64,000 nt of DNA from a virus (taxonomy: Duplodnaviria > Caudoviricetes), in IMG/VR virus record IMGVR_UViG_3300030433_001901, positions 39,767 to 103,766 of that record; one strand, 5' to 3'. The notes under the pieces are model-generated. The model was not told where the DNA came from and did not search any database. It saw nothing but the letters and a program-made list of their open reading frames with translations. Shown here one piece after another: positions 21,420-58,709 of the stretch (position 1 is its first letter; every line of letters begins with the position of its first letter). Made by a program: the position numbers and the translations under genes.

Positions 21420-23108
21420 TCACCTAATATCTAACCCTTTCAATAATGAATCCCATGATGCTTCGTGATTATCTTCACTTAGATTCATTGCTCCTATATC
21501 CGCCATTTCACTTGCCATATCGGGATTATCAAATACAAATTCTTCTTCTGCTTCTTCAACAATCTTTTTTGCATCGGGATTACCTTGCTTCGCGGCTTGG
21601 TCAATAGCCTTTGCTTGTGCCGGAGTATAACCCATTTCCATTAAAGCCGCTTCAACAGCCTTTCCTGTTTTACCACTAAACTTACCAGCGGCAGTCATAC
21701 CTTCCGTTCCTACACCACCTTGCAACATGGCTTGCATTGCATCTTCGTAATTAGCGAATGGGGTTTTTTGGTGTTGAGCATACACTTTATCTAACCCACC
21801 CGCGACTCTATCACCTGCGGTTGCACCTAATTTCATACCAGCGTCGCCAGCAAACCTTTGTCCAAATGTTGGTTCAGTCGCCGTAGCGGTTTCCGGTTCA
21901 ACCTTCATTGGTTGCCCCGCGTCTTGTGGTGGTGTTCCTGTTTCGGGTCCTTCTCTATTTTCATTTATGTATTCTTCAACGGATTGACCGGAGCGTGGGA
22001 ATTGCGGTGTTGTTCCTGTTTGCGGCTCGTTGAATACAAATTCTTCTTCTTCTTCCTTCGGCACTATATCAGTATCAGCCGCTCGCTCCGCTTCGGGTGT
22101 TGGTGCTTTCGGCATTGCTGGTGGCTCCGGTTCTTTTTCCGGCACGACATTAGAAGGCGCGTATGCCGCTCCTTCTCGTTCTGCTTGATTCCTTGCTCGT
22201 CGCTCATCACCGCGTCGCTTCATACCAGCGAAGAAACCTTCTTTTGGTTGTTCGCGTCTTGCACCTATGTCTTTGATTTCTTGTCGCATAGCGTCTTGAG
22301 CAGTCATAGTTGGGTTGCCTTCACTATCGGTTGGGATATTGATGTTGTAGTCGCGAGCAAGTTGTTGATTGATGGCTCCACGCGCTCTATCCATGTTTTC
22401 ATCAAAGCCTTGACTACCCGGAACATTTCTGCGTTCTGCGTCGTCAACTTGTCGCTGTCCGCGACCAAGACCAGTTTCAAGTGCATTTCTTCGTGCTTCA
22501 TCTTCGCTCCTTGCGCGGCTATCTCTAAATGATTGCATAGCGGCTTGTGGGGCATGTCGTAAGTCGCTAATTCCACGACCAACCTTACCCATGAAATTAC
22601 CCATGCGTTGTCGCATACCTCCTTCTTTAGAAGTGTCGGCGGCTCTTGCGGCTCTTCGGTCCTTCATTCCTTGAAAGATATTCTTACCCGCTTGCATAGC
22701 GGCTTGGCCGTAAAAACCAGCACCCGCTAAATCTCCAACTTTGGTGCTACCACCACGGACTGCTTCACCTGCTTGCGCAGAACGCATAGCGCGGTTTGCT
22801 TGCTTCACCGCTCTTGGGTTTGGTGCGACAGCAGTTCCCGCCGCCGGAACAGCAGGTCTAAATTGTTCATTAGGCATACCGAATATCGGTTGTTGTGGAA
22901 GATTCTTCCGAATGATGTCGGGGTGAGAGTTGTCGCGCTCCGCGACAGCCTTGATGAGAGGTTCCCAACTGTTGTCTTGGACATCAAACATAACATAGTT
23001 CATGTCCGCGACGGTGCCGCCTTTTGCAAAAATAAATTCCATAGTCCCTAAGTCGCGACCGTGTTCCAGCATACTACTATTCCATTCTATTTCCCATGTT
23101 TCAACCAT
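21420..23108 (-). CDS. Low-complexity putative internal virion protein with two EEEFVF motifs
   Basis: Start ATG 23108 after GGAGGTG; Ala/Gly/Gln/Arg-rich; ends SWDSLLKGLDIR. Confidence 0.65.
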   Translation of the reverse strand: MVETWEIEWNSSMLEHGRDLGTMEFIFAKGGTVADMNYVMFDVQDNSWEPLIKAVAERDNSHPDIIRKNLPQQPIFGMPNEQFRPAVPAAGTAVAPNPRAVKQANRAMRSAQAGEAVRGGSTKVGDLAGAGFYGQAAMQAGKNIFQGMKDRRAARAADTSKEGGMRQRMGNFMGKVGRGISDLRHAPQAAMQSFRDSRARSEDEARRNALETGLGRGQRQVDDAERRNVPGSQGFDENMDRARGAINQQLARDYNINIPTDSEGNPTMTAQDAMRQEIKDIGARREQPKEGFFAGMKRRGDERRARNQAEREGAAYAPSNVVPEKEPEPPAMPKAPTPEAERAADTDIVPKEEEEEFVFNEPQTGTTPQFPRSGQSVEEYINENREGPETGTPPQDAGQPMKVEPETATATEPTFGQRFAGDAGMKLGATAGDRVAGGLDKVYAQHQKTPFANYEDAMQAMLQGGVGTEGMTAAGKFSGKTGKAVEAALMEMGYTPAQAKAIDQAAKQGNPDAKKIVEEAEEEFVFDNPDMASEMADIGAMNLSEDNHEASWDSLLKGLDIR

Positions 23109-24873: not shown

Positions 24874-26159
24874 CCTACACCACCTCTTCTAACATACAAA
24901 TCGTAAGGGTGCGCGCCCCATCGCGTAGCGTCGTCGTCGGGGTCTGTTTCTGTTGCACCTGTCGGGTTAGATGTCAAACCACCCGATGAATTAGGTGATG
25001 ATTTCTCATCAGCACCTTGCATGGATTTATCTTCTTTACGCATCAATCGGCGCAATAAATGATTGAGTTGGTCTATCAGTTGGCGATATTCAATGCGGTC
25101 GCGATGTGATATTCCTAATTTTAATTTCTGTGCGCGCTTATGCAAAAACTCTTCGGAAGCCAATATAGCATCTGTTGAACCAATACCACCCGCGGCCATA
25201 GCAGAAGCACCACCACCAGCAAGAGAAGTCGCTTCCGACGCTTCTTTCCCACCCGGTGTTGCGGCAGTTCTTGGTTGCCTTAGTGCTTTTTTGTGTGGTC
25301 TTGAATCTCGCGAACCGCGTGGTGCGCGTGCTACCCTTGATTGAGGACTGACTGTGGGTATAGGAGGGGTGATGTCCTGTGTCGGTGTGTCTTGACGCAT
25401 AGCCTGTCGTAAGTCTTGCTCCACCTTTTTTTGCGGATTAGTGGCTGTTCTTGCTTGAGTTCTTCCTGTTGAGAAAGTCAAAAACCTTGGTCCTGTCGGA
25501 GAGGGTCTTCTTGAACCCATCAAACCAAATGAAACATAAGGTGCGCGAGCCGCTGTCATTGTTGAAGCGATGCTTGGTGTTCTTACATTCCCACCTTTGA
25601 GTCTTCTCTTTTTTGTGCTACGACTTCTTTTCGCACTTTCAGTATCTTTCATACCGTATTTCTTTTTACGCCTACCTTTTTTCGCACGCGCTCTTGCTTG
25701 TTGTGTTTCAAGCGTAGTAGTTTTCTTAGGCTTCTCGTCGTCGTATTTCGGCTCGTTTTTTTTGGCCTTGCGTATTGACTCAAAAGCATCATCAATGAAA
25801 GGTGCGGTTGATAACAACATATTCATTCCAGCACCACCACCAAAACTACCGCGAGGGTTTGCACCATCTATTGCCTCGTTTTGACCCACTTGACCGGATA
25901 GTTGACCAGCCTCGGCTTGCCTTTTCATGTCGCTATCTTCTTCATCATCGCGTTTTTGAGGTATTTTTATCTTCATGTGTTGAAGACCTTGCATCATTTT
26001 GGCGCGCTTTTCTTGCTTTTCGCGCTTTTTCGCATCATGAAGTGCGCGCTCTTCGGAATCTTCCCGACCTACATTAGAATCATCTTGTAATTCTTCCGCA
26101 CTTTGACGAGGATTGAAACGCATACCTGCGGTGCTACCTTCGGGTCCACCTACCATCAT
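24870..26159 (-). CDS. Basic, largely disordered protein
   Basis: 429 aa with a Lys/Arg-rich centre after DDAFESIRK/A. Confidence 0.6.
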   Translation of the reverse strand: MMVGGPEGSTAGMRFNPRQSAEELQDDSNVGREDSEERALHDAKKREKQEKRAKMMQGLQHMKIKIPQKRDDEEDSDMKRQAEAGQLSGQVGQNEAIDGANPRGSFGGGAGMNMLLSTAPFIDDAFESIRKAKKNEPKYDDEKPKKTTTLETQQARARAKKGRRKKKYGMKDTESAKRSRSTKKRRLKGGNVRTPSIASTMTAARAPYVSFGLMGSRRPSPTGPRFLTFSTGRTQARTATNPQKKVEQDLRQAMRQDTPTQDITPPIPTVSPQSRVARAPRGSRDSRPHKKALRQPRTAATPGGKEASEATSLAGGGASAMAAGGIGSTDAILASEEFLHKRAQKLKLGISHRDRIEYRQLIDQLNHLLRRLMRKEDKSMQGADEKSSPNSSGGLTSNPTGATETDPDDDATRWGAHPYDLYVRRGGVG

Positions 26160-26824
26160 TCATCACCCCCAATCAACTTGCCGCGAAGTCGCGCCCATAC
26201 TTCGGGGGACTCTTTCGCTAATTCAACTTTGAGTATGTTTATGGTCTGTGCGTTCATGGTTTCATTAGTATTACCAGCCGCGCGTTCTTGCACCCTCATG
26301 ATGTCTTTGACCGTTTCGCGAACTTCTTTGTGTAAAGATACTATGTTGCGAACATATTGTGGGTCATTCCGGTCTGCATCGTCAAGAAAATGACCTAATT
26401 CACCATTTATGCGTGATAAATTTGTTCTCAAACTCTCCATTTCTTTACCAGCCTCAACTATGATAATATCTGCCGCGCCTTTCTGCACTACTGGCTTAAG
26501 ATGATGTTTGAGATGATGATAAACGCTGGATTCGGGCATCTGTATATCTTGGGCTATTTCTTCAACGCTCATACTGGCGTTAAAATAAGCCATTTCTAAA
26601 TTTTCTCTTTTTGAGGATACACAAAAACCACATTCGCTATTACTACCCATGTGATATTCTCCCATGTGGTTGCGAAAATGCCTATCAGCGGTGCCTTCTC
26701 GCCACCCTTTATCTTTATCTAATTGCTTCGCTGTAATCAACCCAGCCTTCATCAATTCTTCCATACCGTCGCGGTCGGGGTCTTGACAGAACTTACAAGA
26801 GGCTCTTGATATACGCTCCGCCAT
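26156..26824 (-). CDS. Putative terminase small subunit (tandem Zn/HTH repeats plus coiled coil)
   Basis: Two CxxC...HTH...H-x3-H repeats followed by a helical oligomerisation-like segment; start ATG 26824; upstream of terL in the same operon. Confidence 0.55.
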   Translation of the reverse strand: MAERISRASCKFCQDPDRDGMEELMKAGLITAKQLDKDKGWREGTADRHFRNHMGEYHMGSNSECGFCVSSKRENLEMAYFNASMSVEEIAQDIQMPESSVYHHLKHHLKPVVQKGAADIIIVEAGKEMESLRTNLSRINGELGHFLDDADRNDPQYVRNIVSLHKEVRETVKDIMRVQERAAGNTNETMNAQTINILKVELAKESPEVWARLRGKLIGGDE

Positions 26825-26862: not shown

Positions 26863-27171
26863 ATGAGAAAGAGATTGAAACGCGCACCAAAAGTAGGCGG
26901 AGTTCCAATCTCATTAGGAACTGCTAAGAGTCTTTCGCGAGCCGCGGCTGATTTAATCACAAATCAGCGCGCGGACTTGACAGAAAGGGAGCGTCGCTAC
27001 AATATTTGCTTAACATGCCCCGAAAGAAACCACGATAGATGCAGTCTTTGTGGTTGTTTCATCAAGACAAAAACTATTTTTAAAAACAGCGAATGTCCTA
27101 TCGGTAAATGGTCAACCTTGTTGACCGAGCCGACGATAGACGATACCGCTTGCACTAAAAGAGAGGAATAA
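26863..27171 (+). CDS. Cys-rich protein (DUF6171-like)
   Basis: RYNICLTCP..RCSLCGCFIKTKT..CPIGKW; the only convincing plus-strand gene in the late arm. Confidence 0.65.
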   Translation: MRKRLKRAPKVGGVPISLGTAKSLSRAAADLITNQRADLTERERRYNICLTCPERNHDRCSLCGCFIKTKTIFKNSECPIGKWSTLLTEPTIDDTACTKREE

Positions 27172-27345
27172 AGCACCTATAACCCAACTTAAGTCCTTTG
27201 ATGACATCTGTGGGCCGGAGAAAACCAAAATTAAGAAGCAACCAAGTGTCAAAGCAATAAGTTGAACCATAATCATATCAACAATAACAGACTTACGCAA
27301 GTTAGTCATATCACTAATAGTGTTGTAAATAGAGCCAATATCCAT
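27112..27345 (-). CDS. Small two-TM membrane protein (holin-like topology)
   Basis: Two hydrophobic helices and a basic C-terminus; ATG 27345 after GGAGG. Confidence 0.65.
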   Translation of the reverse strand: MDIGSIYNTISDMTNLRKSVIVDMIMVQLIALTLGCFLILVFSGPQMSSKDLSWVIGALFLSFSASGIVYRRLGQQG

Positions 27346-27346
27346 A

Positions 27347-27928
27347 TTATCTTCCTCCTGTTGTGACACCGCGAAGGAATGAACCTATACCACCGCCAAC
27401 ATTTTGCATCAATCCGGGGTCGGCCATAGCATCATTCAACATATTTTGCATCAAACTTTGATTTGCGAGGTTAACCATTTGCTGAAACTCCATAGATTTT
27501 TGTTGAACATTGTTTGACGCGTTGTTTAGTAATTGAGTTTGCGACATGGTTACGCTATCAACAGTCGGCATTCCTTGAACTCCGCTAAAATCAAACTTAT
27601 ATCCATCTCCGTCTTCAACTAAACGCGCGTCTTTAAGCAAAGTATTCATTGATACTGCGACTAAACTACTCAAAAGTGATACAAGCATATTCATATTGGA
27701 ACCGTTGTTATCGGATAACCACTTATCTATCATTGGATTTGTTGTTATCATCGCGGATAATATCTCCATCTCGCTCGGAGGTGCTTGATATTGGAATCCA
27801 TACTGTTGTTGACCCCATTGCTGTTGTCCTTGTGCGGCAACTTGTTGTTGTCCGTTAGGTAATCCAAGATTCAAAGCACCATTTTGTTGCTGGTTTTGCT
27901 GATTATTGTTGTTAGACCACCACGCCAT
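27347..27928 (-). CDS. Asn/Gln-rich protein with amphipathic termini
   Basis: MAWWS followed by an N/Q tract; C-terminal GLMQNVGGGIGSFLRG. Confidence 0.65.
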   Translation of the reverse strand: MAWWSNNNNQQNQQQNGALNLGLPNGQQQVAAQGQQQWGQQQYGFQYQAPPSEMEILSAMITTNPMIDKWLSDNNGSNMNMLVSLLSSLVAVSMNTLLKDARLVEDGDGYKFDFSGVQGMPTVDSVTMSQTQLLNNASNNVQQKSMEFQQMVNLANQSLMQNMLNDAMADPGLMQNVGGGIGSFLRGVTTGGR

Positions 27929-27937
27929 GATACCACC

Positions 27938-28822
27938 TCACGCGCTCCCATCATTTGATTCTGTCGGTAGTGGGAGAGGTGCTGATTGTTGTTGAGATTG
28001 ATGCATCGCGAGCGCATCATATAGCAATCTTGCGTTATTCCCTGCTTGAAATTGACGCATATCAAAGACAATCATTACTAAATCATTCATTCCTGTCGCG
28101 GCATTAGTTAGATGTGTGATAGGAATATTGTCTTGTTTGAGCATTTGAAAGAATTGTTCGTATTTTGACAGTATAGGAGGTGTGTTATCTTTCTTTTTTA
28201 TGCTATTTATCGGCACAGCAACGGTTGAAACACCTTTTTTCAACTTGGCTCTTAGTGTTCCGTTGTTGGCTTCTTGCTCTTTTTCTTCCTCTTTCTCCCA
28301 TTTACACAATAAATGATACAAATGTAAGTGTTCGGGACAGTATGTTCCGCGCATTTTACGCCCACTTGTGACATTTTCGCGCGCTACAAAGGCTTCAACT
28401 TCGCCCGTAACGGGGTTTTTGAAGTATAAATCCCACAAAGATTGACCAGTTTCTTCATCAATTACCTGCTCATATATGTTCCCTGCGTGCCGTAAAAGGT
28501 GTTCAATATCCGCTCCATCAATGACACAACGCATTGTATTGGTATTATATCGGTATTTTCCACCAAATAACCATCTTCGCGGCGAAAAAATGCTTCTTTT
28601 TGTCGGTTTTAGCAATTTATACGCCTGTTTTATGTCTTTTCTGCGCGCTTTTTTGGGATTCGGGTGTTGTGAAGGGTAAAAATTGACTTGCGGCACTTCA
28701 ATATGGTCACTTGCGTTGTTCATCGCGGCTTGCGCGGTGGCTTGTTGTTGCATTTGAGCATAACTCATCTGTGTCTGTGCGGCAAGGCGTAATAAATCAT
28801 TTTGAGGTGTATTTCCGAGCAT
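27938..28822 (-). CDS. Hypothetical protein in the GTPase cassette
   Basis: 294 aa; Gln-rich ends, basic/aromatic SIFSPRRWLFGG patch, YCPEHLH. Confidence 0.65.
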   Translation of the reverse strand: MLGNTPQNDLLRLAAQTQMSYAQMQQQATAQAAMNNASDHIEVPQVNFYPSQHPNPKKARRKDIKQAYKLLKPTKRSIFSPRRWLFGGKYRYNTNTMRCVIDGADIEHLLRHAGNIYEQVIDEETGQSLWDLYFKNPVTGEVEAFVARENVTSGRKMRGTYCPEHLHLYHLLCKWEKEEEKEQEANNGTLRAKLKKGVSTVAVPINSIKKKDNTPPILSKYEQFFQMLKQDNIPITHLTNAATGMNDLVMIVFDMRQFQAGNNARLLYDALAMHQSQQQSAPLPLPTESNDGSA

Positions 28823-28826
28823 TTTA

Positions 28827-29549
28827 TCACCAACTTAGCATTTCTATCATTGTTTTTTCCACATTCCAGCCAATTTTAGTCGCCATCATGCTAACACGAC
28901 ACGGAATACCCGCTTTTTGTAGTCTTCGCATGGCTGGGCGGTGCGCATCAAACACTTTATGTTCTCGCAAACGGTTAGATTGCCATAAAATGTTAGCATT
29001 ATCGTCCCACCATTCATCGGCTTTGTTCGCTACAAGCCATATTTGCTTTGGAGCGTAGCGTTTTCCTTTCAATCTTGATTTTAAAGAGCGATATTTCCAT
29101 CTTTTTTCTATCAATGAGTCAACAAGATACTCAAAACCACCCACCGCGTCAATAACTTGCGCACCATTTCCTTTCAAAACGCGCGTATCAGTCATAAAAA
29201 TAGCAATTTCAACCTGTCTATCAACCATATCATCAATCCATAGGTTCCAAAAACGCTGTTGACCGCCAATATCAGCAGAATGCACTACTCTTTTTTCTCC
29301 TTTCCAGCGAATACGCTTACGGCTTGCTTTAGGAAGCACATATCCACCACCAAATAACCGTTGAGCGTGCATAGTCCTTTCCTCTATATCGTCCATTTCA
29401 CCCGGTGTGCGCATAAATTGGTCAAGTGTTGTCTTACCGACTTGTGTTGGTCCATAAACGCCGATTCTGCGCGGTTTGAGGAAGTTGTATAGTTCGCGCC
29501 CATAAACAACTGCCCCCATAAGTGCGCTTCCAGCGAATGTAGCAACCAA
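28827..29549 (-). CDS. Arf-like small GTPase
   Basis: G1 GPTQVGKTT, G2 Thr (ERT), G3 DIGGQQRFWNLW, G4 NKAD, G5-like ATKIGWNV; hydrophobic/amphipathic N-terminal helix. Confidence 0.85.
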   Translation of the reverse strand: MVATFAGSALMGAVVYGRELYNFLKPRRIGVYGPTQVGKTTLDQFMRTPGEMDDIEERTMHAQRLFGGGYVLPKASRKRIRWKGEKRVVHSADIGGQQRFWNLWIDDMVDRQVEIAIFMTDTRVLKGNGAQVIDAVGGFEYLVDSLIEKRWKYRSLKSRLKGKRYAPKQIWLVANKADEWWDDNANILWQSNRLREHKVFDAHRPAMRRLQKAGIPCRVSMMATKIGWNVEKTMIEMLSW

Positions 29550-29786
29550 TCACCCCACCCAGCCGCGTATTTTTTCTAAAAACCAGTTAACAGTATTCTC
29601 CCAAACGCTAAAATCTGTTCCATATTCAAACCAAGATACCCCTAACGCTGATACAATACCGACAATTATACACAAAACCAACGCTTTACCACGCTCGTAA
29701 TATGTATCAAGCGTATTTTGTGTATGTAAAGCGCGTAGCGTGGCTTCTGTCGCATCATCGCTTGGGGTTTTGAATAACCAACCCAT
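29550..29786 (-). CDS. Single-TM membrane protein
   Basis: ALVLCIIVGIVSALGVSWF helix plus a Trp-rich amphipathic C-terminus. Confidence 0.7.
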   Translation of the reverse strand: MGWLFKTPSDDATEATLRALHTQNTLDTYYERGKALVLCIIVGIVSALGVSWFEYGTDFSVWENTVNWFLEKIRGWVG

Positions 29787-29791
29787 AGAAA

Positions 29792-30310
29792 TTACTCCTT
29801 CTTTGTTTTCTTGTAAGTGCCGTCGGCATTTCTTTCTCTATTTGTGCCTAATTTAATTGCTTTTTTTTCTGCGGCTTTGTGTTTTGGAGTTCCTTCTTCG
29901 GTATCAAGCCCCATCAAACCAAGATATTGTTGAACTTCGGGGTCTTTTTCTAATTCTTCCATTTGTTTCGCGAATGCTACCTCTTGTTTTTTAATTTCCA
30001 TATCCATTTGCGCTTGTGCAAATCGCATTTGTTGGCTTTGCATTTGTCGCGTCATGTTTCGTTGCATGTTTGAAATAATTGCGCGTTGGTCCATTCCGTC
30101 TTGAGCCAACATTTTGTAAATGAAGTAAGCCATTCCTTGCAATGTGAACGCTCCCATCATATATGTTATCGCGTTTGTGTGGGTTGAAGTGTCCTTCAAC
30201 CACAACCCCGCATCAAATACTGCGATAGCGCAACCTACAAGTATGCTTACAAATGAAATTAGCCCTAATACTCTTAACTCGTCTTTATTTTGTGGTGTTC
30301 GCTCTTGCAT
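29792..30310 (-). CDS. Two-TM membrane protein with coiled-coil tail
   Basis: Two hydrophobic helices then a Gln/Met-rich coil; ATG 30310 after GGAGG. Confidence 0.7.
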   Translation of the reverse strand: MQERTPQNKDELRVLGLISFVSILVGCAIAVFDAGLWLKDTSTHTNAITYMMGAFTLQGMAYFIYKMLAQDGMDQRAIISNMQRNMTRQMQSQQMRFAQAQMDMEIKKQEVAFAKQMEELEKDPEVQQYLGLMGLDTEEGTPKHKAAEKKAIKLGTNRERNADGTYKKTKKE

Positions 30311-30344
30311 AACAACCAACCTCCTTGCGTAGTGCGTGGCGCGA

Positions 30345-30440
30345 ACCATAAATAAGTCTATTGATTCACCTTTTTATCAATATTATAATATTATTATTAT
30401 AACAATATATTAATTATCATTCTAATAATAAAATGATATT
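30345..30440 (-). promoter_or_regulatory. AT-rich tract and probable promoter of the GTPase cassette
   Basis: About 70 nt of near-pure A/T, then TTATTTATG upstream of the GGAGG RBS. Confidence 0.45.
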
Positions 30441-33400
30441 ATTGAGAATTTTCGTCGCCACCTATTGTTCTCGGACCTACACCGTATTGGTAAAATTGTA
30501 ATGGCTGTTGCGGCGGTGGTGGGAAGAAGGGGTAAGGTGCAACTTGAGGTGCGGGTTGCACAGGAGGTGTCGCGGCCTGTCCCTCATTTACAGCATGTTC
30601 GTATTTGAGCATATCACTATGGTTTTGAAGTGATAATGTCGGGTGTGACAAGTATGATAACATAAATGATGTAGTAATTTGTTTTGCTAACTCCGGCGGT
30701 AAAGCATTATTAGCGTGTGCTTGTCTAAGTTCTTCGTAGTTAGCAAAACCATCTTCTTTATCCTCTTCGCCTTTAATTATGTTATTTATCTCATTACGAT
30801 GATGCCAATTTGGTGCTTCGTGATAATTACCAACCTTCTTCATGACATCATACATTTGTTGGTCTGCTGGTGTTATTAAAGAGTTTCTTGCTCGCGTAAG
30901 TATCGCTGATGCCATAGAAGGAACAAACTTGCTCTCTATCTCGCCGTCTTCATCTCTTTTTAATTCTTCATATCCAATAGGAAACTCGCCTTCGTCGCTA
31001 TGTTTTGCATTAGCCATCACGCTGTCTTTGAATTCCGACGGTTTAATTTCTTGAACTATATTACCTCTTCCACCAGTAATCTGTGCTGTTTTCTTTAAGT
31101 TAAATTTCTTCTCAAAGTGGCTATAATCATCATACCCAAGTAGTTTCGCGGCTTCATCATGCATTAGTTCATACAATGCGCTATCTTCACGCGTCAAGTC
31201 TTGGAAATTGTTTTGGTTGATACTTTGCGGTATCTTTGGAAATTCAAGAGGATTATTAATTTCACGCATAAATACATTCATTGCGCTCATTATAGCGTAT
31301 TTTTGCCACATTTCGCGTATAGCCATATTCAAACCCATCGTATATCTGCTATTCAACGGGCGTTGTTTTCCATCTGCGTTAGCCGATGTCAAAAGATTGT
31401 TGACTTTACTCTTGGTAATATCACTATCAGCAATTGCTTTCATAGTTTCATCACTATAAGTCAAATGATGGTCTTCCATTTCACCAACCATTTCTTTTTC
31501 ACCATAATTTCTAAGCAAATCGTTTAACGCAGAACTCGTCAAGTTTGTTGTCTTACGACGAGTCATAGGTCTTTTTATCTTATCAAATACATCTACTATA
31601 CTTTGCATCGCTTCGGGGCTATAATCATTGACTCTTTCGCGTCTTTTTATTACACCTTGCGCTTTTCTATTACCTGCAAATAATCTTTTCAAATCTTCGT
31701 CTGTTATATCGCTTGGTGCATGTGTCGCACCCGGCTCAAAGACACCTTCGCGGATTTCTTTCATAGTCAACATACGACCATGCGCGGGGTAAAGTGATTG
31801 AAAATCTCCAAATGTCATAGGTGAATTACCACCAAACACATCTGCGGCTGTTAAAGAAATGTTGCCTTTTTCATCAACAGGTAATCTTCTCCTTTGAGCG
31901 ATTAATTTATTTCTATCTTTTCTTTTCATCGCTTTTCCAGCCATAACATCGCTTAGGTCGTCAACAAAAGGTGCTTCCGCCATTTCTTGCAATTCATGTA
32001 TTTTCTCAAGCAAATGGTGTTCTGTGTTGCCATGAACATCACCATTGATAAACGCTGGGTGTGCTTTTATTTCATTAACTAAATCGTTAATTTGTTGTTT
32101 AACATCTATCGGCACTTGTTCGTAAATTTCTTCATCATCACTTGTTAGTCCTTTGAATTCACTTCGGAACTGCGGAGCATCACCTTGACCCGCTAACGCC
32201 ATTCTCGCTAATTTATTAATATGATTTTCAAGCATAAGTTTGTTGTGATTGTTTGTCGCGGTGTTATGAACAGTTGGTAATTTTATCTCCGGTTTAGGCT
32301 TTGTTGGTTGCGAAGTAAGTTTTTCCGCTAATCTCTTTTGTCGTATCTCTTCTGTTCTCGCAGGGTCAATTTGTTCCGTCGGCACACCTTGGAACTCCGG
32401 GGCATCTTCGTCAATTTCTATTTCCGGCAACTCTTTCTTCTTGCGCGCTTCGCGTAATTCTTCAAGTGTTCTAAATTTACCACTATCAGTAGCGTCCCCA
32501 TACATCTGCCATAGAGGTTTTGTTGGTGCTAACATACCCGCTGGCATTTCATGACCACCAATTGAGGCTTGCGCGCTTTGCAACATTATTGAGTTAAGGA
32601 AATCAAACTTCGCGTCAACAGCACCATTGTGTGTATAGTGGTGATTTTTACCATCTATCTTATTTCCTTCTTTGTCTGTATAACCTTCATACAAGTGGGC
32701 TTCATCATCGGGGTCGCGAATACCGCTACCACCACATTCGGAGCAGATACCATTACATAATTGTCCACCCCTAACATAATCCGCGCTATGATTACAAGAA
32801 GGACAAGCGAGTTGTTCATGCTCACCATCTTCCATATCATCAGCCATCGCGTGTCCCGCGAATGAAGCACTATTACGAGGTCGCAAATTATCCGCGATGT
32901 ATCTATCAAACCTCGGACTTCCCATTGGTTCATCTCTTAATTCCGGTATATGATGGCGCAAGTATGTTTTTGCTTCATCTCTTGTCACAAATCTATGTCC
33001 ATGACATGTTCCGCACAATGTCGGTGCGTGTTGTCGCCAGTTGCTTATCAATTGGTCTGCGCTGGCGAAATCACCACGCGCAATTGCTTCTTCTGCTTCT
33101 CTTGTGAAGTGTGAATTCAACTCTCTTCGCGCGGCTTCTTCTTCGGATAGCAACCCCAACTCATCTTCGTTTGAGTCGTGGTGATGATGTCTTAACTCCG
33201 ACATGTTGACATCGGCTAATTCTTCTAATGATAAATTAGCGATTGCTTCATTTATCGCTTCATCATCAAAACTATCATCTGCGTTTTCTGCGTCGTCCAT
33301 CATCGCGTTGGCTTGCGCAATTTGTTCTTCGCTAAGTGGGAATCCATTTTTCATACGATGAGCAATTAATTGCATCTCGGAACTAATACGCGGCATCGCT

Positions 33401-36400
33401 TTGTTGTTGATATTGAATCTTATACCTGTTCCAGCCATTTGACCCAATCTTCCATCTTTGTATTTAGACAAACTGTGCGTTTTATCATATCCTATGTTGC
33501 CATTCATGTCAGCAGTTATGATTGAGTCGTATTCACCCGAAGGGCTATCTGCGTATAATTTATTATAGACATTCTCAATAACTTCCCTTTCAGTCATTTT
33601 TTCGGGGTTTTTGACAAAATTTGCTAATTCTTCACCACCCATAATAAAAGCACCAAGCATAAGTTTATTTGCGCGCTCAATAGATTCGTTACTTTTGTCT
33701 TTATATCTATCTATTTTTTTCTTGGCTTTCTCAATTTTTTTATTAGCCTCTTTCATAATGGCTAACATATTACCGTGTTCTTTTTTTATTTTTTGACCCA
33801 TATCTTTGATGATTGCTATTTGCGCTGGTTCACCGAATTTTCCGCGTCTTTCGCGCTCAATACCATCTTCGTCTTTATATTTTACCATCTTGGTTTCAGC
33901 CAACAAATTTTCATAGTTCGCTTGTTCTTTCAAATAGCGCGCATATTGCTTCTTGTATGTTGCTTTTTCAATTTCATTTCGCTTGATAACACTTTCTTGT
34001 TTCTCTATACCGCTTAATGGTTGTGAAATCATATCTTTTAATGTATCGCGTCTATACGAGTCTTGTGCTAATGCTCCCGCTTTTATTTTTTTACCATAAG
34101 CACCTTCGGTCAACTCCCTCATGAATGATAGCGCATCTTCTATTGCATTGTAGCGAGTCGCTAATAAATTCCTACTTCTTACCTTCTCATAGTGTTTATC
34201 AGTAGCGTCGTCATTGTTTAAGAAAAATGACGCGGCTGTTAATTCTTTATTGGACATACCTGCTGGCCCTGTCGCTAATGGATTTTCAAGAGTTTTACTT
34301 AGTCCAAATTTTTTGTAAATGTTAGCCGCGCGTGGGTTTCCTGTAATCACAGCATCTTTGATTTCACGCTTCATGCGCTTTTGTATATCTTTCGCCCATG
34401 CTCTAACTCGCTTTTCTTCACGCGCTGTTTTTTCTTGGTCTAACAAATCATCAATGTCATACTTATTAGGGAATATGTGATTTGCGATGGCGGCTAATGA
34501 AGGACTACCTTTGGGTGCTACCGCAGGTAAAAAACCACTTTTGTTACCTTTGCTGTATCCTGTCAATGACGGCACTACTACTGATTTATGAGCGAATGGA
34601 CTTTTGATACTTCTTATTCTTCCTCTTGAAGTCGGTATTCTTGGTCCACGCGCATACGCTTCTTTCGCAGTTCTATTACCAAATCTGTCGGGGTGGCAAG
34701 CAAGACATTCTTCTTTATCATGAACAACATCTTCGGCGTGTTCATGGTTGGGGTCAAACCATGCATCGGACTCTTCTGTTTTCTTAGATTTAGTTTTAGC
34801 ATATTCTTCTTTCATAATTTGTCGCGCTTCGTGGTTTTTACGGAATTTTTCTTTCTGCTCCATTAACGGTGCATGATATTCTTCATCTAAAGCGCGCCTA
34901 TATCCAACATCTTTTAGGTAGTTCAACAAACGCTTTATTGGGTATGTATTTAGGGTGCCGTCTTTCATTTGTGATGCTAATAGAGATGTAAATGCATCAT
35001 TGTAGCCTGTTGTAGTCATATCTGCGTTTGCATATTTTATCGCGGCGTTAATAATATCAATAGGGTTTAATCCTAAATTATTCAGCATTTTTTGTTGATA
35101 ACTCATTGTTGATGTCAACCTTGGTATATACGCTGATAATTTACCATTCATCAAATCATCTAATGTTTTATAACGCGCATTTTCTTCTTTAGTGCGTTCT
35201 TCTTTGGGTTTGCCAAATGCAACAATATTATCCGCGTCTAATTTTAAAGCGGCTATTTTATCATCAATGTCTTGCTTTGTTAGTGGCTGTGGCTTTTTGT
35301 TTTTTCCTTTCTTTACCATCTTACCTTCGCTATGTTTGTATGCTTCATATCTCAAATCTCGGATTATACGACCCATACCAATTAGACCATCAACAAATGT
35401 ATCTGTTGAAGCAATCAAATCATCTTCGTTTTTACCATGCAATGGGTGGTTAACATCAAAATCATCACCAGTTAAACCTCCTAATTTAGCATCGGGGTCT
35501 AATAGATGTCGTCCGTCTAAATCCATCGCCATTATTTGCATTTTGTAATCATAATCGTCAATATCACCTATGTTCAATTGTCGCTCTAATTGCTGTATTT
35601 TTTGCGAAGGAGTCAATTTTCTTTTACCGCGCAAGACTTTTATTTCATCTTCGGGTGTCATCAACGCTGATTCGGTTTCAGCACCACCTTTCTCACTTCT
35701 GCGTGCTTCTTTAGCGCGTGTTTCTTTTTCTTCTTGGTCGCCACCAATAAAACCGGGGTCAACAACTTGAACATTCGGGTCGCCATACAAAGTGCTTAAC
35801 AAACCTTCTTCGCCCATCGCAGTCAACAATGTTGGGTGAAAACCTTGGTTAGATGTTTCATCGGACAATTGTTCTGTTATTTCTTCTCTAAGATTCATAC
35901 TGAAAGGGTCAGCCTCTTCCCTCCACCTCTTACCGATGAAATCCGGTATGTTTGGTGCTTGCATACCAATACCAAGACTTCTGCCTAATTCATTCATTGA
36001 TGGAGTAATCGCGTCGGGTGTTCGCCCTACTTCTATTTCAGCACCGAATTTACCTGCGCGCCCCGATGTTCCGAACGCTTTGTTGCCTGTTAATGAAATC
36101 ATAAAGTTGTTGAAATCATCTTGTATTTTAGCAAAAGCGGCCTTTTTATCAAGATTAAATTCTCGCATCAAATCTTTGTGTTTTGTTTCTAAAGCCCTCG
36201 TTTCTTGTGTTTGTGGCCTTCTTACCGACACACTTGCTGGGGCTTTTGGCCCACGGTCAATATCAGTCTGTGAAAAGAATTTGTCGTAGTAATCTTCTGC
36301 GGCGCGTTGTTGTTTTTCACCACCGTATTTGAATCTCTTATCGTCTTTGAACTCCATGTTTTCTTTTTGTTCTTGCACCAATCGGTTCATCTCATCTTCA

Positions 36401-37050
36401 AAAGATGTATCAGTCATAGGACCTGCGACTCTTACTCGCGATTGTGGCTTTCGTCTTTTGATATTAGGTTGAATTTGACTTCCGGCTAATTTAGCGTCTG
36501 CTGTAATCGTAGGTGCTATTGGGTGCATGTATTTCTCAAATAAGTTATGAATCCCCTTAATTTCATTCTCTTGCGCAAATCGTTTTTTATTGTATGGTTC
36601 GGCGATAAATGCCGATATGTCGGGTCGTATGCCACCCATACCAGCCATAGCATCTTCCAACGACCCATTTATCTCTTCGTCTTTATCGCGCGCTTCCTGT
36701 AATTCGGGGTGTTTAGCAATCAATTGCTTTAGGTGCAACATAACTGGCGCGTTAATGAGAGGTTCTTCGCCTAAACTCATATTGTCATCTTCGCGCTCAT
36801 CGTGAATACTTCTTGGAGTATCTTTTTCTGTTAAGCCGCTATAACCCAACGCATTAGCGAGTAAATGGTTGTTCGCGTATATTATAGCATCAAAGAATGA
36901 AAAAATACCAAATTTGTTGTCTTTATCTAAGTATTTTTTCTCGGCCTCGTTCATGTATTTTTGCAACGCGTCAAAGCCTTTTTGGGTTGGTCCGCCCTTC
37001 TTTTCACCCTTCTTTTCATCGGACTTGATGATGCGGACAAAAGAACCCAT
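30439..37050 (-). CDS. 2203-aa protein with DnaJ-type Zn-finger repeats; putative internal virion protein
   Basis: Begins MGSFVRIIK/S; CLACH, CGTCHG, CPSC and CSECGGSG; Pro-rich C-terminus. Confidence 0.65.
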   Translation of the reverse strand: MGSFVRIIKSDEKKGEKKGGPTQKGFDALQKYMNEAEKKYLDKDNKFGIFSFFDAIIYANNHLLANALGYSGLTEKDTPRSIHDEREDDNMSLGEEPLINAPVMLHLKQLIAKHPELQEARDKDEEINGSLEDAMAGMGGIRPDISAFIAEPYNKKRFAQENEIKGIHNLFEKYMHPIAPTITADAKLAGSQIQPNIKRRKPQSRVRVAGPMTDTSFEDEMNRLVQEQKENMEFKDDKRFKYGGEKQQRAAEDYYDKFFSQTDIDRGPKAPASVSVRRPQTQETRALETKHKDLMREFNLDKKAAFAKIQDDFNNFMISLTGNKAFGTSGRAGKFGAEIEVGRTPDAITPSMNELGRSLGIGMQAPNIPDFIGKRWREEADPFSMNLREEITEQLSDETSNQGFHPTLLTAMGEEGLLSTLYGDPNVQVVDPGFIGGDQEEKETRAKEARRSEKGGAETESALMTPEDEIKVLRGKRKLTPSQKIQQLERQLNIGDIDDYDYKMQIMAMDLDGRHLLDPDAKLGGLTGDDFDVNHPLHGKNEDDLIASTDTFVDGLIGMGRIIRDLRYEAYKHSEGKMVKKGKNKKPQPLTKQDIDDKIAALKLDADNIVAFGKPKEERTKEENARYKTLDDLMNGKLSAYIPRLTSTMSYQQKMLNNLGLNPIDIINAAIKYANADMTTTGYNDAFTSLLASQMKDGTLNTYPIKRLLNYLKDVGYRRALDEEYHAPLMEQKEKFRKNHEARQIMKEEYAKTKSKKTEESDAWFDPNHEHAEDVVHDKEECLACHPDRFGNRTAKEAYARGPRIPTSRGRIRSIKSPFAHKSVVVPSLTGYSKGNKSGFLPAVAPKGSPSLAAIANHIFPNKYDIDDLLDQEKTAREEKRVRAWAKDIQKRMKREIKDAVITGNPRAANIYKKFGLSKTLENPLATGPAGMSNKELTAASFFLNNDDATDKHYEKVRSRNLLATRYNAIEDALSFMRELTEGAYGKKIKAGALAQDSYRRDTLKDMISQPLSGIEKQESVIKRNEIEKATYKKQYARYLKEQANYENLLAETKMVKYKDEDGIERERRGKFGEPAQIAIIKDMGQKIKKEHGNMLAIMKEANKKIEKAKKKIDRYKDKSNESIERANKLMLGAFIMGGEELANFVKNPEKMTEREVIENVYNKLYADSPSGEYDSIITADMNGNIGYDKTHSLSKYKDGRLGQMAGTGIRFNINNKAMPRISSEMQLIAHRMKNGFPLSEEQIAQANAMMDDAENADDSFDDEAINEAIANLSLEELADVNMSELRHHHHDSNEDELGLLSEEEAARRELNSHFTREAEEAIARGDFASADQLISNWRQHAPTLCGTCHGHRFVTRDEAKTYLRHHIPELRDEPMGSPRFDRYIADNLRPRNSASFAGHAMADDMEDGEHEQLACPSCNHSADYVRGGQLCNGICSECGGSGIRDPDDEAHLYEGYTDKEGNKIDGKNHHYTHNGAVDAKFDFLNSIMLQSAQASIGGHEMPAGMLAPTKPLWQMYGDATDSGKFRTLEELREARKKKELPEIEIDEDAPEFQGVPTEQIDPARTEEIRQKRLAEKLTSQPTKPKPEIKLPTVHNTATNNHNKLMLENHINKLARMALAGQGDAPQFRSEFKGLTSDDEEIYEQVPIDVKQQINDLVNEIKAHPAFINGDVHGNTEHHLLEKIHELQEMAEAPFVDDLSDVMAGKAMKRKDRNKLIAQRRRLPVDEKGNISLTAADVFGGNSPMTFGDFQSLYPAHGRMLTMKEIREGVFEPGATHAPSDITDEDLKRLFAGNRKAQGVIKRRERVNDYSPEAMQSIVDVFDKIKRPMTRRKTTNLTSSALNDLLRNYGEKEMVGEMEDHHLTYSDETMKAIADSDITKSKVNNLLTSANADGKQRPLNSRYTMGLNMAIREMWQKYAIMSAMNVFMREINNPLEFPKIPQSINQNNFQDLTREDSALYELMHDEAAKLLGYDDYSHFEKKFNLKKTAQITGGRGNIVQEIKPSEFKDSVMANAKHSDEGEFPIGYEELKRDEDGEIESKFVPSMASAILTRARNSLITPADQQMYDVMKKVGNYHEAPNWHHRNEINNIIKGEEDKEDGFANYEELRQAHANNALPPELAKQITTSFMLSYLSHPTLSLQNHSDMLKYEHAVNEGQAATPPVQPAPQVAPYPFFPPPPQQPLQFYQYGVGPRTIGGDENSQ

Positions 37051-37510
37051 TGTTGTATCGGATAACGACCATGCCCTTGAATATAGCGGTTGATGAAAAT
37101 TTTTGCTGGATTTTTTTTGACCCCCACGAAAAAAATATCTGTATTTCGCACGCGGTTAAGGAGGGCAAATTGGTCGCGCGCGAGCGCGACTCCGGCTAAG
37201 CAATTTGCGCCGCGAAGCGCGAGAGCCTCGCGCTACACCTATTATCACGCGCATATCGCACATTTCGCGATAAAACAGGGGCGCGATACAGCGTTTAGCG
37301 CAATTACCGCGAGGGGGTTTCCGGCGCGAGTCCCTCGCGCCTCCAACCATACGGTTGTCGCGCGGTCTTGCCTTCCCTTTCCGAGCAAGTCCGCGACAGA
37401 CCGACAACCCGATTTTTGGCTGACCCCTTATAAGGGGCGCGTTAAACCATACTGAAAAAGCACTTCCCTTGATAACAGCAAAGAGGGAAGATAATAGAAA
37501 GGTGAAAAAA
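37051..37510. other. Divergent intergenic control region (candidate origin or packaging site)
   Basis: Strand switch; A/T tracts around GACCCCC; dense CGCG; short inverted repeats. Confidence 0.5.
37424..37448 (+). promoter_or_regulatory. Palindromic TATA promoter, copy 1
   Basis: CCCCTTATAAGGGG palindrome plus CGCGTTAAACC; 23/24 identical to 58686-58709. Confidence 0.7.
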
Positions 37511-38703: not shown

Positions 38704-39080
38704 ATGCCTCATAACTGCAATGACCCTCATTACAGTTATTCTCTTTGGCATAAAGACAAGGACATGATACTCCGCCAACCATACGGTTGAGGATTACTGT
38801 CTTGCGCTAAAATAACTTGGCGTTGTTGTCAAGCATGCACGATTCTTGATGCTCTTGACATATTACCTGTTGCTATTGAAGCAACGATTCACATTCACCC
38901 TTTCAGTATTGATACTACCACTACGCATGTGTAGTTTCAAATCATACTGATAGTTTAACTCCGCGCTAATCTAACATTTAACACGAAGGATTATCGCGAT
39001 TATCATATTCTTATTATAATAATAATTAACTTATTATTATAATAATAAAACAATAATAACAATAAAAGGAAGGAACAAAA

Positions 39081-39341
39081 ATGAAGAACGAACAATTGAA
39101 TAAGATACTGAAAGATATACTAAGCGAGTTTGGCTTTGAGCCTAACGCTTTTGCTATGGGTATGCTTGATGGTGAAAGCCACAGACGCGCTAAGATACAA
39201 ATGCTTGGTCGCATCACTAATCATATCAAAAGCATCGCTGACTATGATTACCAAATGTTTTGTATAATTAGAGATGATATTGAAATGGCATACGATGAAA
39301 TGATAAGGAAAAAAGAGGTTGAAGATAATGATAGAAGTTGA
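39081..39341 (+). CDS. Hypothetical protein
   Basis: 86 aa after an AT-rich tract and an AGGA RBS. Confidence 0.6.
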   Translation: MKNEQLNKILKDILSEFGFEPNAFAMGMLDGESHRRAKIQMLGRITNHIKSIADYDYQMFCIIRDDIEMAYDEMIRKKEVEDNDRS

Positions 39342-40911
39342 AGAAGTTGAAGAAGAATTTGTATTTACTAACTCACATGATATGTGGCTTAACCAAGAGG
39401 CTGACGAAGATGAAATGATATTCACATTCGCACCGGATATTGATGTGGCTAAATCACTACCTGCTAACAGGACAGGTGAACAACTACAAGAAGGAGCGCG
39501 ACCGTGGCAACAGGAAGGTTATGCTTCATGGCTTGGCTTAGATGGCAAGCGCATGGGAACATGGGTTGCTACCGGAGCAGGTAAGACGCGTCTTGCTATT
39601 ACTGTCGCTCACAATTGGCTACACGAACACGAACCTCACCCCGTTATCATATTCTATGTGCCGACTAAAGCATTACTTAATCAAACGCGAACTGTATTCC
39701 GTATGTGGGGTCTAACTGTTGGTCGTATTGGTGGTGGATACAATGAACGCTCACCAAACAAAGATGTGTATATTACTACTTACTTATCAGCCAAGAAGAT
39801 ACCTAACATCAAACACTTACAGAACAGAAAGAAACTTCTCATCTTAGATGAATGCCACATGGCGGGTGGAGAAGGTGCGCTCAAACACTTTCGCAACTTT
39901 CAAGGTGATGCTTGTCTATTACTTAGCGCAACACCGCACAGAAGTGATGGTGTTTGTGTCATGTGTGAGTTGAATACCACACCAAAGAACCATGTCTGTC
40001 AAGGCGAGGATTGTGTTGCAGGTATTCATTGTCGCGTCAAACTAATTGAAGGTATCAAACAATCAAGGACAGACGATGACGAATTAGATTACACATTCCA
40101 CCTTATCAAAATCAAGATGAAAGATGCTGAACAGATTGAATACAATGAGTTGACTGAACAGATTAGCAAACTGTATTGGAAGTGCTACAAGGCGGCTGAT
40201 GAAACAGCGGGTGCTAACAAACACAATCTATTTGACAGACGCAACTTCAAAGTTGGAGGGTTGTTGAATGAGGTTGTATCTTATTCACAGGCAGGTAAGC
40301 CTATGACTATACTACACATGTATCAGTATCTATGCAACAAGCGCAAGAGATTGATGAATGACATGGAGAATAGATTTACTGCCGCGCAATACATACTCAA
40401 TGAAAACATTGGTAAGAAAGGATTACTATTTCACGAAACCATCTTTGGTATTGAAAGACTCAATGGTATGTGTAAGAACTTGGGTATTCACCCACACATA
40501 TATCACAGCGGTCTTTCCACATTACCTGCTGATGTCTATGAAACTTACCCCGAACTAAACAACGCGGGATTCAAACGCAGACTACAACAATATAGCGAAG
40601 ATGCTACTAAGGAATTGAAGAGATGGGAACGCTCATCATCGGACATTCTATTATCATGTAAGTCATTGAAGGTTGGTTTCAATGCACCGGACATTGACTA
40701 CTTAGTGATGATGACAGGCACAAACAATGTGCGCTCTCGCATTCAAACTATTGGTCGTGTGTTTCGCGGTAGCAAGCACAAGGACATCTACATGTTTGTG
40801 TATGACAATGAAGAAGGAGGCGACATGAAATGCTTTTACAAATTGATAAACGAAACAGGCATCAATGAAGAGCCGGAGAAAATACGAGTCCACATTTACG
40901 ATAGTGAATGA
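39319..40911 (+). CDS. Superfamily 2 helicase (XPB/Rad25-like)
   Basis: RPWQ, ATGAGKT, DECH, SAT, GFNAPD, QTIGRVFR. Confidence 0.9.
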   Translation: MKIMIEVEEVEEEFVFTNSHDMWLNQEADEDEMIFTFAPDIDVAKSLPANRTGEQLQEGARPWQQEGYASWLGLDGKRMGTWVATGAGKTRLAITVAHNWLHEHEPHPVIIFYVPTKALLNQTRTVFRMWGLTVGRIGGGYNERSPNKDVYITTYLSAKKIPNIKHLQNRKKLLILDECHMAGGEGALKHFRNFQGDACLLLSATPHRSDGVCVMCELNTTPKNHVCQGEDCVAGIHCRVKLIEGIKQSRTDDDELDYTFHLIKIKMKDAEQIEYNELTEQISKLYWKCYKAADETAGANKHNLFDRRNFKVGGLLNEVVSYSQAGKPMTILHMYQYLCNKRKRLMNDMENRFTAAQYILNENIGKKGLLFHETIFGIERLNGMCKNLGIHPHIYHSGLSTLPADVYETYPELNNAGFKRRLQQYSEDATKELKRWERSSSDILLSCKSLKVGFNAPDIDYLVMMTGTNNVRSRIQTIGRVFRGSKHKDIYMFVYDNEEGGDMKCFYKLINETGINEEPEKIRVHIYDSE

Positions 40912-58561: not shown

Positions 58562-58685
58562 CGCTTCACGAAACTAATTATCAATATTATTATTTTATTA
58601 CAATAAAAATAATTTACTTTATCTTTATAATAATAATATTATAATATCAATAATTCTGTATCCAAAATCGCTGGACTGAATGTAT

Positions 58686-58709
58686 CCCTTATAAGGGGCG
58701 CGTTGAACC
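58686..58709 (+). promoter_or_regulatory. Palindromic TATA promoter, copy 2
   Basis: CCCTTATAAGGGGCGCGTTGAACC; TTATAA about 30 nt upstream of the RFC ATG (leaderless arrangement). Confidence 0.7.

Follow-up and report, generated by a model that had tools for sequence, protein, structure and literature searches.

A conserved operon of membrane proteins and a virus-only small GTPase in a magrovirus-type tailed virus: a candidate for virion release

The window analysed here is a 64-kb stretch of DNA from a magrovirus-type tailed virus, one of an abundant oceanic group with marine archaea as hosts. One arm of this genome carries the genes for the terminase, portal, protease, capsid and tail tube, while the other encodes helicases, SNF2 and a clamp loader. 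The open reading frames of the window include six co-directional genes on the minus strand (g1–g6; 27112–30310). As the initial annotation had described, these genes are tightly packed, with intergenic gaps of 5, 0, 4, 9 and 1 nt from g1 through to g6. A Shine-Dalgarno-like AGGAGG, read directly from the sequence (30320–30325, minus strand), precedes the g1 start codon (position 30310) by 9 nt, and this start is supported by the N-termini of relatives, which begin at the equivalent methionine. The 3' end of the operon is marked by a convergent, Cys-rich gene on the plus strand (26863–27171), which overlaps the 3' end of g6 by 60 nt. Its product belongs to DUF6171 (Pfam PF19668; 30.9 bits, cut-off 27) and is kept in 80 of 84 loci. 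Hydropathy analysis agreed with the transmembrane (TM) content predicted earlier, with a strong and a weaker TM segment in g1, a single one in g2 and a pair in g6. Outside this operon, the window encodes no convincing TM protein.

Gene g1 (29792–30310, minus strand, as for all six) encodes a 172-residue membrane protein that, besides TM1 and the weaker TM2, has a coiled-coil tail rich in Q and M. All 80 close loci retain g1, as do distant lineages (dN/dS 0.05–0.11), and it has no family match in Pfam, PHROG, PADLOC or NCBIfam. The 78-residue, single-TM protein g2 (29550–29786) begins with the conserved stretch MGWLFKTPSDD and ends in an aromatic tail (dN/dS 0.08–0.23); its stop codon directly abuts the start of the GTPase gene g3. 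Downstream of g3, g4 (27938–28822) encodes a 294-residue orphan with a basic/aromatic patch and, in the alignment, a conserved Cys/His motif (C99 and C162-P-E-H-L-H-L-Y-H). In distant lineages, the Cys residues of g4 are retained and the His residues are partly or wholly missing. C99 and C162 are kept throughout, and the His residues are lost in locus L084, which makes a catalytic metal (Zn) site unlikely; a structural Zn site is possible. The AlphaFold2 (AF2) model of g4 is poor (pLDDT 59). A wide fold search with g4 gave no match above Z 6, those found being helical hairpins, and a comparison with the Atlas returned no usable match. A modelled complex that paired residues 40–270 of g4 with the GTPase, GTP and Mg scored 0.01, a value that is uninformative either way on binding. 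The 193-residue, N/Q-rich g5 (27347–27928) is moderately hydrophobic in its central part and rich in Gly at its C-terminus. It was detected by tblastn in 78 of 80 loci (dN/dS about 0.1), and Q/M-rich equivalents are present in every distant lineage. The least universal of the six is the 77-residue, two-TM protein g6 (27112–27345), which occurs in 80/80 close loci and in L088 and was not seen at its position in L084, L089 and L128.

The third gene, g3 (28827–29549), encodes a 240-residue protein with a hydrophobic N-terminal helix, the motifs G1–G5 and a basic interswitch hairpin. It is strongly basic (41 K+R versus 26 D+E), with dN/dS values of 0.03–0.09. The G boxes reported in the initial annotation (GxxxxGKTT, T59, DxxG and NKAD) are present and conserved in relatives. 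Across 20 GTPase sequences, down to 24% identity, G33, G38, K39, D93, G96, N175 and K176 are invariant, and G1 (GxxxxGK[ST]), G3 (DxxG) and G4 (NKxD) occur in the order that defines the Ras superfamily (TRAFAC P-loop). The roles of two further elements are assigned from their position: the switch I residue T59 (G2), which is at least 90% conserved, and G5, which reads MAT in close relatives and ISA or VSA in distant ones. Switch II follows the pattern D-x-G-G-x-x-x-hydrophobic-x-x-L-W, with the Trp 11 residues past the Asp, and close relatives share an invariant RFWNLW. Compared with the Arf signature DxGGQxxxRxxW, the spacing of D, GG, L and W is retained, whereas the Gln is variable and the Arg replaced. 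The Gln of DIGGQ, earlier listed among the intact motifs, is Q, E, D or H in close relatives and A or F farther out, so GTP hydrolysis may be slow or partner-dependent. The expected N-terminal helix is predicted at residues 3–24 of the AF2 model, with G7, S8 and G12 conserved in the alignment. In Arf proteins this helix is amphipathic and coupled to an interswitch toggle; in g3, residues 1–17 are uniformly hydrophobic (mean Kyte-Doolittle value 1.54), with a low moment.

Structural comparison placed the AF2 model of the GTPase (pLDDT 72, pTM 0.72) among small GTPases, many of which match it at Z 12.4 to 9 over about 160 residues. The top matches were the signal recognition particle receptor subunit SR-beta, Arf/Arl, Rag and G-alpha proteins at Z about 12, with Rab/Ras at Z ≤9.9. 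SR-beta (2fh5_B; Z 12.4, r.m.s.d. 3.3, 160 aligned residues) ties as the best match and is followed in the ranking by Arf6, Arl2, Arl8 and Sar1. Motifs and model together indicate that g3 is a Ras-superfamily small GTPase. Alignment by hhalign to Asgard small GTPases gave probabilities of 97–98% and did not separate Arf from Rab/Ras (ArfR 97.3%, score 76.8; Rab/Ras 97.9%, score 87.0).

Sequence-based searches returned few relatives. The GTPase has no Pfam match at E ≤1. At E ≤10, the Arf profile PF00025 gave no match in the nearest virus record, while the same profile was positive in 14/14 control genomes; it also fails to report the viral-type GTPase gene in G007 and G008. Among the six proteins, PADLOC and NCBIfam yielded nothing except a sub-threshold small_GTP match at 13 bits. 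A profile search with the GTPase recovered only 86 relatives among 1.84 billion proteins, and none of the PDB sequences was significant, the best being 8oun_A (deposited as 'GTP-binding protein') at E 0.26. P0007 had no relative among viral contigs, and the five most distant family members diverge too far for their alignment to serve in scanning metagenomes. In a tree with 30 Asgard GTPases, the viral sequences form a clade (support 100/98) on a long branch outside the Arf/Rag and Ras/Rab clades, a placement in which long-branch effects are possible.

The label 'Arf-like' given in the initial annotation is thus only partly apt. Switch II spacing, the N-terminal helix and the structural ranking favour it, and those language-model neighbours of the GTPase that carry a family annotation are mostly Arf; Pfam, the profile search and the tree do not, and hhalign does not discriminate. 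With Arf/Arl/Sar1, including Asgard ArfR (PDB 8OUM, 8OUK), the viral protein shares the Ras-like G fold, G1–G5, the switch II D-x-G-G...L-W spacing and a membrane-seeking N-terminal helix (structural Z 11–12.3). It differs in lacking a PF00025 match even at E 10, in lying outside the Asgard Arf clade, in its uniformly hydrophobic rather than amphipathic helix and in being about 60 residues longer, including basic inserts. The missing Pfam match, the restriction to 86 relatives, the separate long branch and the variable Gln place the protein, by sequence, outside the Arf family. SR-beta shares the Arf-like G domain and a hydrophobic N-terminal membrane anchor, and acts as the receptor for a soluble partner. 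However, g3 has no match to the SR-beta profile PF09439, no SRX/longin partner was recognised (best Z 6.0 for g4, on the poor model), and the GTPase here is viral and accompanied by three additional TM proteins. The only viral proteins among the structural matches are GTPases of giant eukaryotic viruses. These Rab/Ras/Ran proteins are likewise virus-encoded small GTPases, but they are recent captures, recognisable by sequence and carried by viruses with eukaryotic hosts, whereas the g3 family is an orphan in archaeal tailed viruses. Judged by sequence, g3 represents a virus-only, very divergent family of small GTPases.

We found 153 relatives in IMG/VR and fetched 80 loci for a comparison of gene order. 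The order g1–g7 is preserved in 80 of 80, in line with the synteny that the initial annotation proposed as a check. A five-gene core, consisting of the 2-TM coiled-coil protein, the 1-TM protein, the GTPase, the Cys/His orphan and the Q-rich protein, persists where GTPase identity is only 31–41%. The core order is also kept in 60/60 loci of a second lineage and in L084, L088 and L089, and one divergent copy of the core is found on a 106-kb contig within a Poseidoniales single-cell genome. All six genes are under purifying selection (dN/dS 0.03–0.28 against relatives, with synonymous sites saturated). Relative to two viruses of 91–101 kb, identity is 60% for the GTPase, 53–54% for the terminase and 74% for the capsid protein, which puts the conservation of the GTPase on a par with that of core genes. 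Gene content and synteny thus bear out the central earlier proposal of a viral small GTPase within a conserved membrane-protein cassette. The six genes are best explained as one operon for a host cytoplasmic-membrane complex around a virus-specific Ras-superfamily GTPase, and they very probably constitute a conserved membrane-associated GTPase module.

When this module is expressed is less clear, because two timing clues disagree. Upstream of g1 lies an AT-rich, promoter-like element (30361–30449, minus strand), which is a candidate for the separate promoter suspected earlier. It sits within the one large intergenic gap of high AT content that the 37-kb minus-strand arm contains. The element is 74% identical over 89 nt to 38990–39078 and 85% identical over 40 nt to 58614–58653, and shares an exact 23-mer with 58625–58647 (chance expectation 0). 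Both copies sit upstream of plus-arm operons, in the direction of transcription, and these replication-arm operons begin with the helicase block and the clamp-loader block. AAGGTGAATCAA was considered as a promoter box and dropped, since elsewhere it mostly matches Shine-Dalgarno-like or coding sequence. The shared element suggests that expression in the window genome may not be late. The previous argument, that a cassette in the late arm should serve lysis, is therefore weak, the operon being a separate unit. In the P0025-like second lineage (L126–L205), by contrast, the core starts 9 nt behind a head-module gene, and in 46/46 loci the same strand carries the capsid gene upstream of the core. 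The core is probably co-transcribed with the head genes there, implying late co-expression in that lineage.

These clues bear on whether the module remodels host membranes early or in the middle of infection, by forming a replication or assembly compartment, by generating vesicles as ArvA or Arf do, or by taking over membrane functions. Besides the element common to the helicase-block and clamp-loader-block operons, the Arf/SR-beta-like fold predicted by the model, with its N-terminal membrane helix, is consistent with such a role. There is also a cellular precedent: haloarchaeal ArvA and its Zn-ribbon partner drive vesicle formation (PMC10927574). In the vesiculation operon of Euryarchaeota, the GTPase ArvA lies beside ArvB (DUF2073) and ArvC (DUF2072), (PMC10927574). 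Like g3, ArvA is a small GTPase with an N-terminal helix, is encoded in an operon with a Cys-rich partner and has an archaeal membrane as its setting. The viral operon differs in being virus-encoded and in having TM proteins as partners, and neither its six proteins nor g7 match DUF2073 or DUF2072. Moreover, the complete 118-kb relative G004, whose GTPase is 73% identical, lacks the shared element in front of its cassette, the linkage to head genes in the second lineage points to a later stage, and Poseidoniales have no known intracellular compartments. On this balance, we regard membrane remodelling as rather unlikely.

The same head-gene linkage would also suit a membrane platform for virion morphogenesis, where the GTPase complex marks the site at which proheads or packaging complexes initiate. 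In T4, gp20 and gp40 take part in starting prohead assembly at the inner membrane. The terminase here is of the T4 type, the cassette adjoins the terminase block in the window and equals the terminase in conservation, the core lies inside the head module immediately behind the capsid gene in one lineage, and the excess of basic residues in the GTPase fits as well. Nevertheless, none of the proteins is homologous to any assembly factor, tailed-virus assembly generally proceeds without a GTPase, and a regular expression (W-x(1-3)-hydrophobic-hydrophobic-K) standing in for a head-targeting tag of the W-x-x-L-L-K type matched 0/6 proteins. A morphogenetic platform is accordingly an improbable explanation.

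Small viral membrane proteins often serve superinfection exclusion in phages, for example Imm and Sp of T4. An accessory host-interaction module of this kind, which would exclude other viruses or else hinder or aid the entry of DNA at the membrane, could be expressed early from the operon's own promoter. Yet modules of that sort tend to vary and to be dispensable. This cassette, in contrast, occurs universally, keeps its order and is subject to strong purifying selection, and PADLOC gave no match. We consider this role very unlikely.

The operon may instead be a means of breaching or reshaping the host membrane, and the likeliest role, which we put forward tentatively, is an egress or lysis machine that times or executes virion release from a murein-less host. 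The GTPase would be held at the membrane by its hydrophobic N-terminal helix, rich in small residues, beside the TM proteins g1, g2 and g6, as SR-beta or Arf/Sar1 are. In its GTP state it could recruit or release the soluble partners g4 and g5, and the assembled complex would locally deform or breach the membrane, thereby timing or performing release from a host without a murein wall. We favour release because the window's convincing TM proteins all belong to the operon, because the GTPase is conserved like core genes and the five-gene core strictly ordered, and because the core of the second lineage follows the head module. The top structural matches (SR-beta, Arf6, Arl2, Arl8 and Sar1) are membrane-acting switches, which argues in the same direction. 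The players in the egress of head-tailed archaeal viruses have been described as completely uncharacterised (PMC10791045), which leaves room for such a machine.

The position of the cassette in the window, upstream of the terminase, portal, protease and capsid genes, further favours egress, as lambda places S-R-Rz upstream of its terminase and head genes. Both cassettes are compact, contain small proteins with one or two TM segments and are linked to late or structural genes. However, the viral operon has no wall hydrolase and no spanin, encoding a GTPase and two orphan soluble proteins instead. To our knowledge, a murein-type lysis gene is not expected for such a host, which counts in favour of release. 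Against egress, searches of the cassette proteins, holin-sized TM proteins among them, in Pfam, PHROGs and NCBIfam found no holin, endolysin, hydrolase or other lysis family. Six conserved components and a GTPase also exceed what, as far as we know, holin systems need, which is far fewer. Phage lysis genes are usually variable, and the conservation of this module, similar to that of the terminase, weakens the case, as do the upstream element common to two replication-arm operons and the variable G3 Gln. A complete relative encodes further TM proteins, one of them a multi-pass protein of 517 residues, among which other lysis candidates may lie. Finally, GenBank phage records, assumed to include haloarchaeal tailed viruses, contain no match to the module, which is therefore not a general egress system of archaeal tailed viruses. 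The fuller proposal is that abundant head-tailed archaeal viruses owe their release to a GTP-switched, membrane-anchored complex, built on an old branch of the Ras superfamily confined to viruses, that times and performs rupture of the envelope in murein-less hosts; this is possible but doubtful.

Among the archaeal viruses of the surface ocean, magroviruses rank with the most abundant (PMC5434244). The searchable literature contained no paper describing this GTPase operon, and the magrovirus papers covered mention no GTPase; together with viral structural matches confined to giant viruses and the GenBank result, this agrees with the earlier remark that no described equivalent in tailed viruses was known. 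A strictly conserved, virus-only GTPase with membrane proteins offers six clonable genes as a candidate system for a step of infection that acts on the membrane, and would be an unusual Ras-superfamily switch in a prokaryotic tailed virus. Whichever role it plays, it adds to the small-GTPase superfamily a deep orphan branch outside cells, which is relevant to the spread and diversification of GTPase switches associated with membranes.

The cassette consists of six minus-strand genes at 27112–30310: g1 (29792–30310), g2 (29550–29786), the GTPase gene g3 (28827–29549), g4 (27938–28822), g5 (27347–27928) and g6 (27112–27345). The initial annotation described them as co-directional with gaps of 0–9 nt, which was borne out after the starts of g1 (30310, with AGGAGG 9 nt upstream) and g6 (27345) were refined; the successive gaps are 5, 0, 4, 9 and 1 nt. 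Judged from sequence comparison, all six are genuine coding genes, even g5 with its low complexity and g2 and g6 with their small size, because their dN/dS values are 0.03–0.28 with synonymous change saturated. Hydropathy analysis placed transmembrane segments in g1, g2 and g6, a hydrophobic 17-mer at the N-terminus of the GTPase and a weakly hydrophobic centre in g5, and found no transmembrane segment in any other credible gene of the 64-kb window. None of the six proteins had a family match in Pfam, PHROGs, PADLOC or NCBIfam.

The window comes from the genome of a head-tailed virus, whose genes are arranged in two divergent arms. The minus arm (1–37050, (−)) encodes a T4-type large terminase, portal, prohead protease, HK97-type capsid protein and tail tube, and the plus arm ((+)) encodes SF2 and SNF2 helicases and an RFC-like clamp loader. 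This gene content matches the published magrovirus description, which mentions SNF2 for group A (PMC5434244). A GTPase relative with 41% identity lies on a 106-kb contig in a single-cell genome labelled Candidatus Poseidoniales, which supports a Poseidoniales host. That contig (L088, CACGHY010000002.1, 106,262 bp) is magrovirus-like and holds the complete arrangement of g1 to g7, the gene following the cassette. As a single-cell record, it links the module to this host directly. Further copies are on contigs that had been assigned to MAGs of Asgard archaea (Promethearchaeati), Maricaulis, Parvibaculum and Flavobacteriales; these are read as misbinned viral contigs. The window also encodes two giant proteins without a Pfam family, of 2203 and 1996 aa (30439–37050 (−) and 8102–14092 (−)); the former gene directly precedes the cassette and is highly variable (22–89% identity among relatives). 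A 35-nt inverted repeat, 89% complementary (21526–21560 and 39337–39371), lies within two coding regions on opposite arms and coincides with an acidic EEEF-V-F peptide motif.

Of 153 GTPase relatives in IMG/VR, 80 loci were fetched, and the synteny check proposed at the outset gave the g1–g7 order in 80/80, with g5 undetected by tblastn in two. The GTPase is the best-conserved cassette member; against two 91–101-kb relatives it is 60% identical, compared with 53–54% for the terminase and 74% for the capsid protein. Remoter family members were found in a library of 1.84 billion proteins. Their loci (L084, L088, L089, L128) retain, in unchanged order, a five-gene core of a 2-TM coiled-coil protein, a 1-TM protein, the GTPase, a Cys-bearing g4-like protein and a Q/M-rich protein; g6, not seen at this position in L084, L089 or L128, is not universal. 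Within the lineage represented by L128, the five genes are in order in 60/60 loci with sufficient flank, and in 46/46 loci they are preceded by a capsid gene on the same strand. At L128 itself, the core begins 9 nt past a head-module gene; a SAP-domain protein (DNA-binding motif, E 4e-11) is encoded at L128:4470–4973, between the capsid gene and the GTPase core.

The G boxes reported for the GTPase are present: G1, DxxG and NKxD do not vary even at 24% identity, and switch I T59 and the G5 [ST]A are kept. The 'catalytic' Gln of the DIGGQ box varies between Q, E, D and H even in close relatives. An AF2 model shows a small-GTPase fold (pLDDT 72, pTM 0.72). In a Foldseek-independent structure search, a Lokiarchaeal RagA-like protein and SR-beta tied first (Z 12.4), followed by Arf6, G-alpha-i, Arl2, RagD and Sar1 (Z 11.8–10.9), with Rab/Ras-type chains only from Z 9.9 downward; a second structure search agreed. 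The N-terminal helix is hydrophobic throughout and carries conserved small residues (G7, S8, G12); it resembles an anchor of the SR-beta type, or a face for helix packing, more than the amphipathic helix of Arf proteins.

Arf-family membership was rejected on profile and tree evidence. The GTPase had no Pfam match at E 1 or below, and its family profile recovered only 86 of 1.84 billion proteins, all of the same family. An Arf model returned nothing from the nearest virus record at E 10, while detecting matches in 14/14 control genomes. Compared with 30 small GTPases from an Asgard genome, the viral protein tied in hhalign (97.3% to ArfR, 97.9% to Rab/Ras), and a PMSF maximum-likelihood tree with these sequences placed the viral clade (100/98) on its own long branch outside both groups, a position that long-branch effects may influence. 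On these grounds the GTPase forms a family of its own within the Ras superfamily, confined to viruses and with features reminiscent of Arf and SR-beta; 'Arf-like' holds for the structural ranking of Arf6, Arl2 and Sar1 above Rab/Ras, but not for family membership. The claim that tailed viruses have no described equivalent stands: the magrovirus literature searched does not mention a GTPase, the viral structural matches all come from giant viruses, and GenBank phage records lack a match. Within the literature searched, the nearest report concerns GTPases of the Arf type in a region of an Asgard genome that resembles a mobile element (PMC11529989).

Among the partners, g4 aligns well across relatives, folds poorly in prediction and had no match in structure or database searches. 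Its Cys residues persist, and the His residues of CPEHLHLYH are missing in one lineage. The N-termini of g2 and g5 share a short aromatic motif, M-[GV]-W-[LP]-F (29786 and 27928; L088:3181; L004:7622); MVWPF opens g2 in L088 and g5 in L004, and g4 of other clades opens with NFGFGG or NPFG. These termini may be a recognition motif common to the module proteins. The always adjoining g7 (26156–26824, (−); true start 26824, not 26914) has two CxxC pairs, a helix-turn-helix and weak ArsR/sigma-r4-type matches, and may act as a regulator or bind DNA in the manner of a small terminase.

The six genes are a unit apart from g7 and the terminase block, since downstream of them a conserved DUF6171 gene runs on the other strand (26863–27171 (+)) and shares 60 nt with the 3′ end of g6. 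Its Cys-rich 102-aa product, antisense between g6 and g7, is kept as a protein in 80/84 loci; L088 has another Cys-rich gene there, on the cassette's strand. The minus arm has a single large AT-rich gap, which is located upstream of the cassette. An AT-rich element of ~65–89 nt (30361–30449, 38990–39078 and 58614–58653) precedes three operons: that of the GTPase, one starting at 39081 and the one at 58714 that encodes the clamp loader. The 89 nt upstream of the cassette are 74% identical to the region before the operon at 39081, and 40 nt of the gap are 85% identical to that before the clamp-loader operon, with an exact common 23-mer. The element is probably a promoter class common to the three units, in line with the promoter predicted for the cassette. 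Because it is shared with replication-arm operons, it undercuts the argument that a late-arm position implies lysis; an earlier remodelling of the host membrane, which would suit such an element, seems unlikely. Timing evidence is mixed, because no such element precedes the cassette in the complete 118-kb relative G004, and the L128 lineage has the core inside its head operon. That embedding would suit a membrane platform for virion assembly, which we also consider improbable. Separately, a 38-nt direct repeat, 84% identical (37425–37462 and 58686–58723), lies just upstream of two plus-strand genes, contains the palindrome CCCTTATAAGGGG and may be an operator or processing site.

Against a role in egress stand the unusual conservation and complexity of the module, the shared promoter element and the absence of matches in GenBank phage records, which we assume include haloarchaeal tailed viruses. 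Exclusion or entry functions are very unlikely. In favour of egress, no machinery is known by which head-tailed archaeal viruses leave the cell (PMC10791045), the host has no murein, and the cassette is a core module, linked in two lineages to genes for morphogenesis. For these reasons egress is tentatively ranked first among the possible roles. The anatomy of the cassette, as read from its sequence, points to a complex on the host membrane that would be switched by GTP and built from g1–g6.
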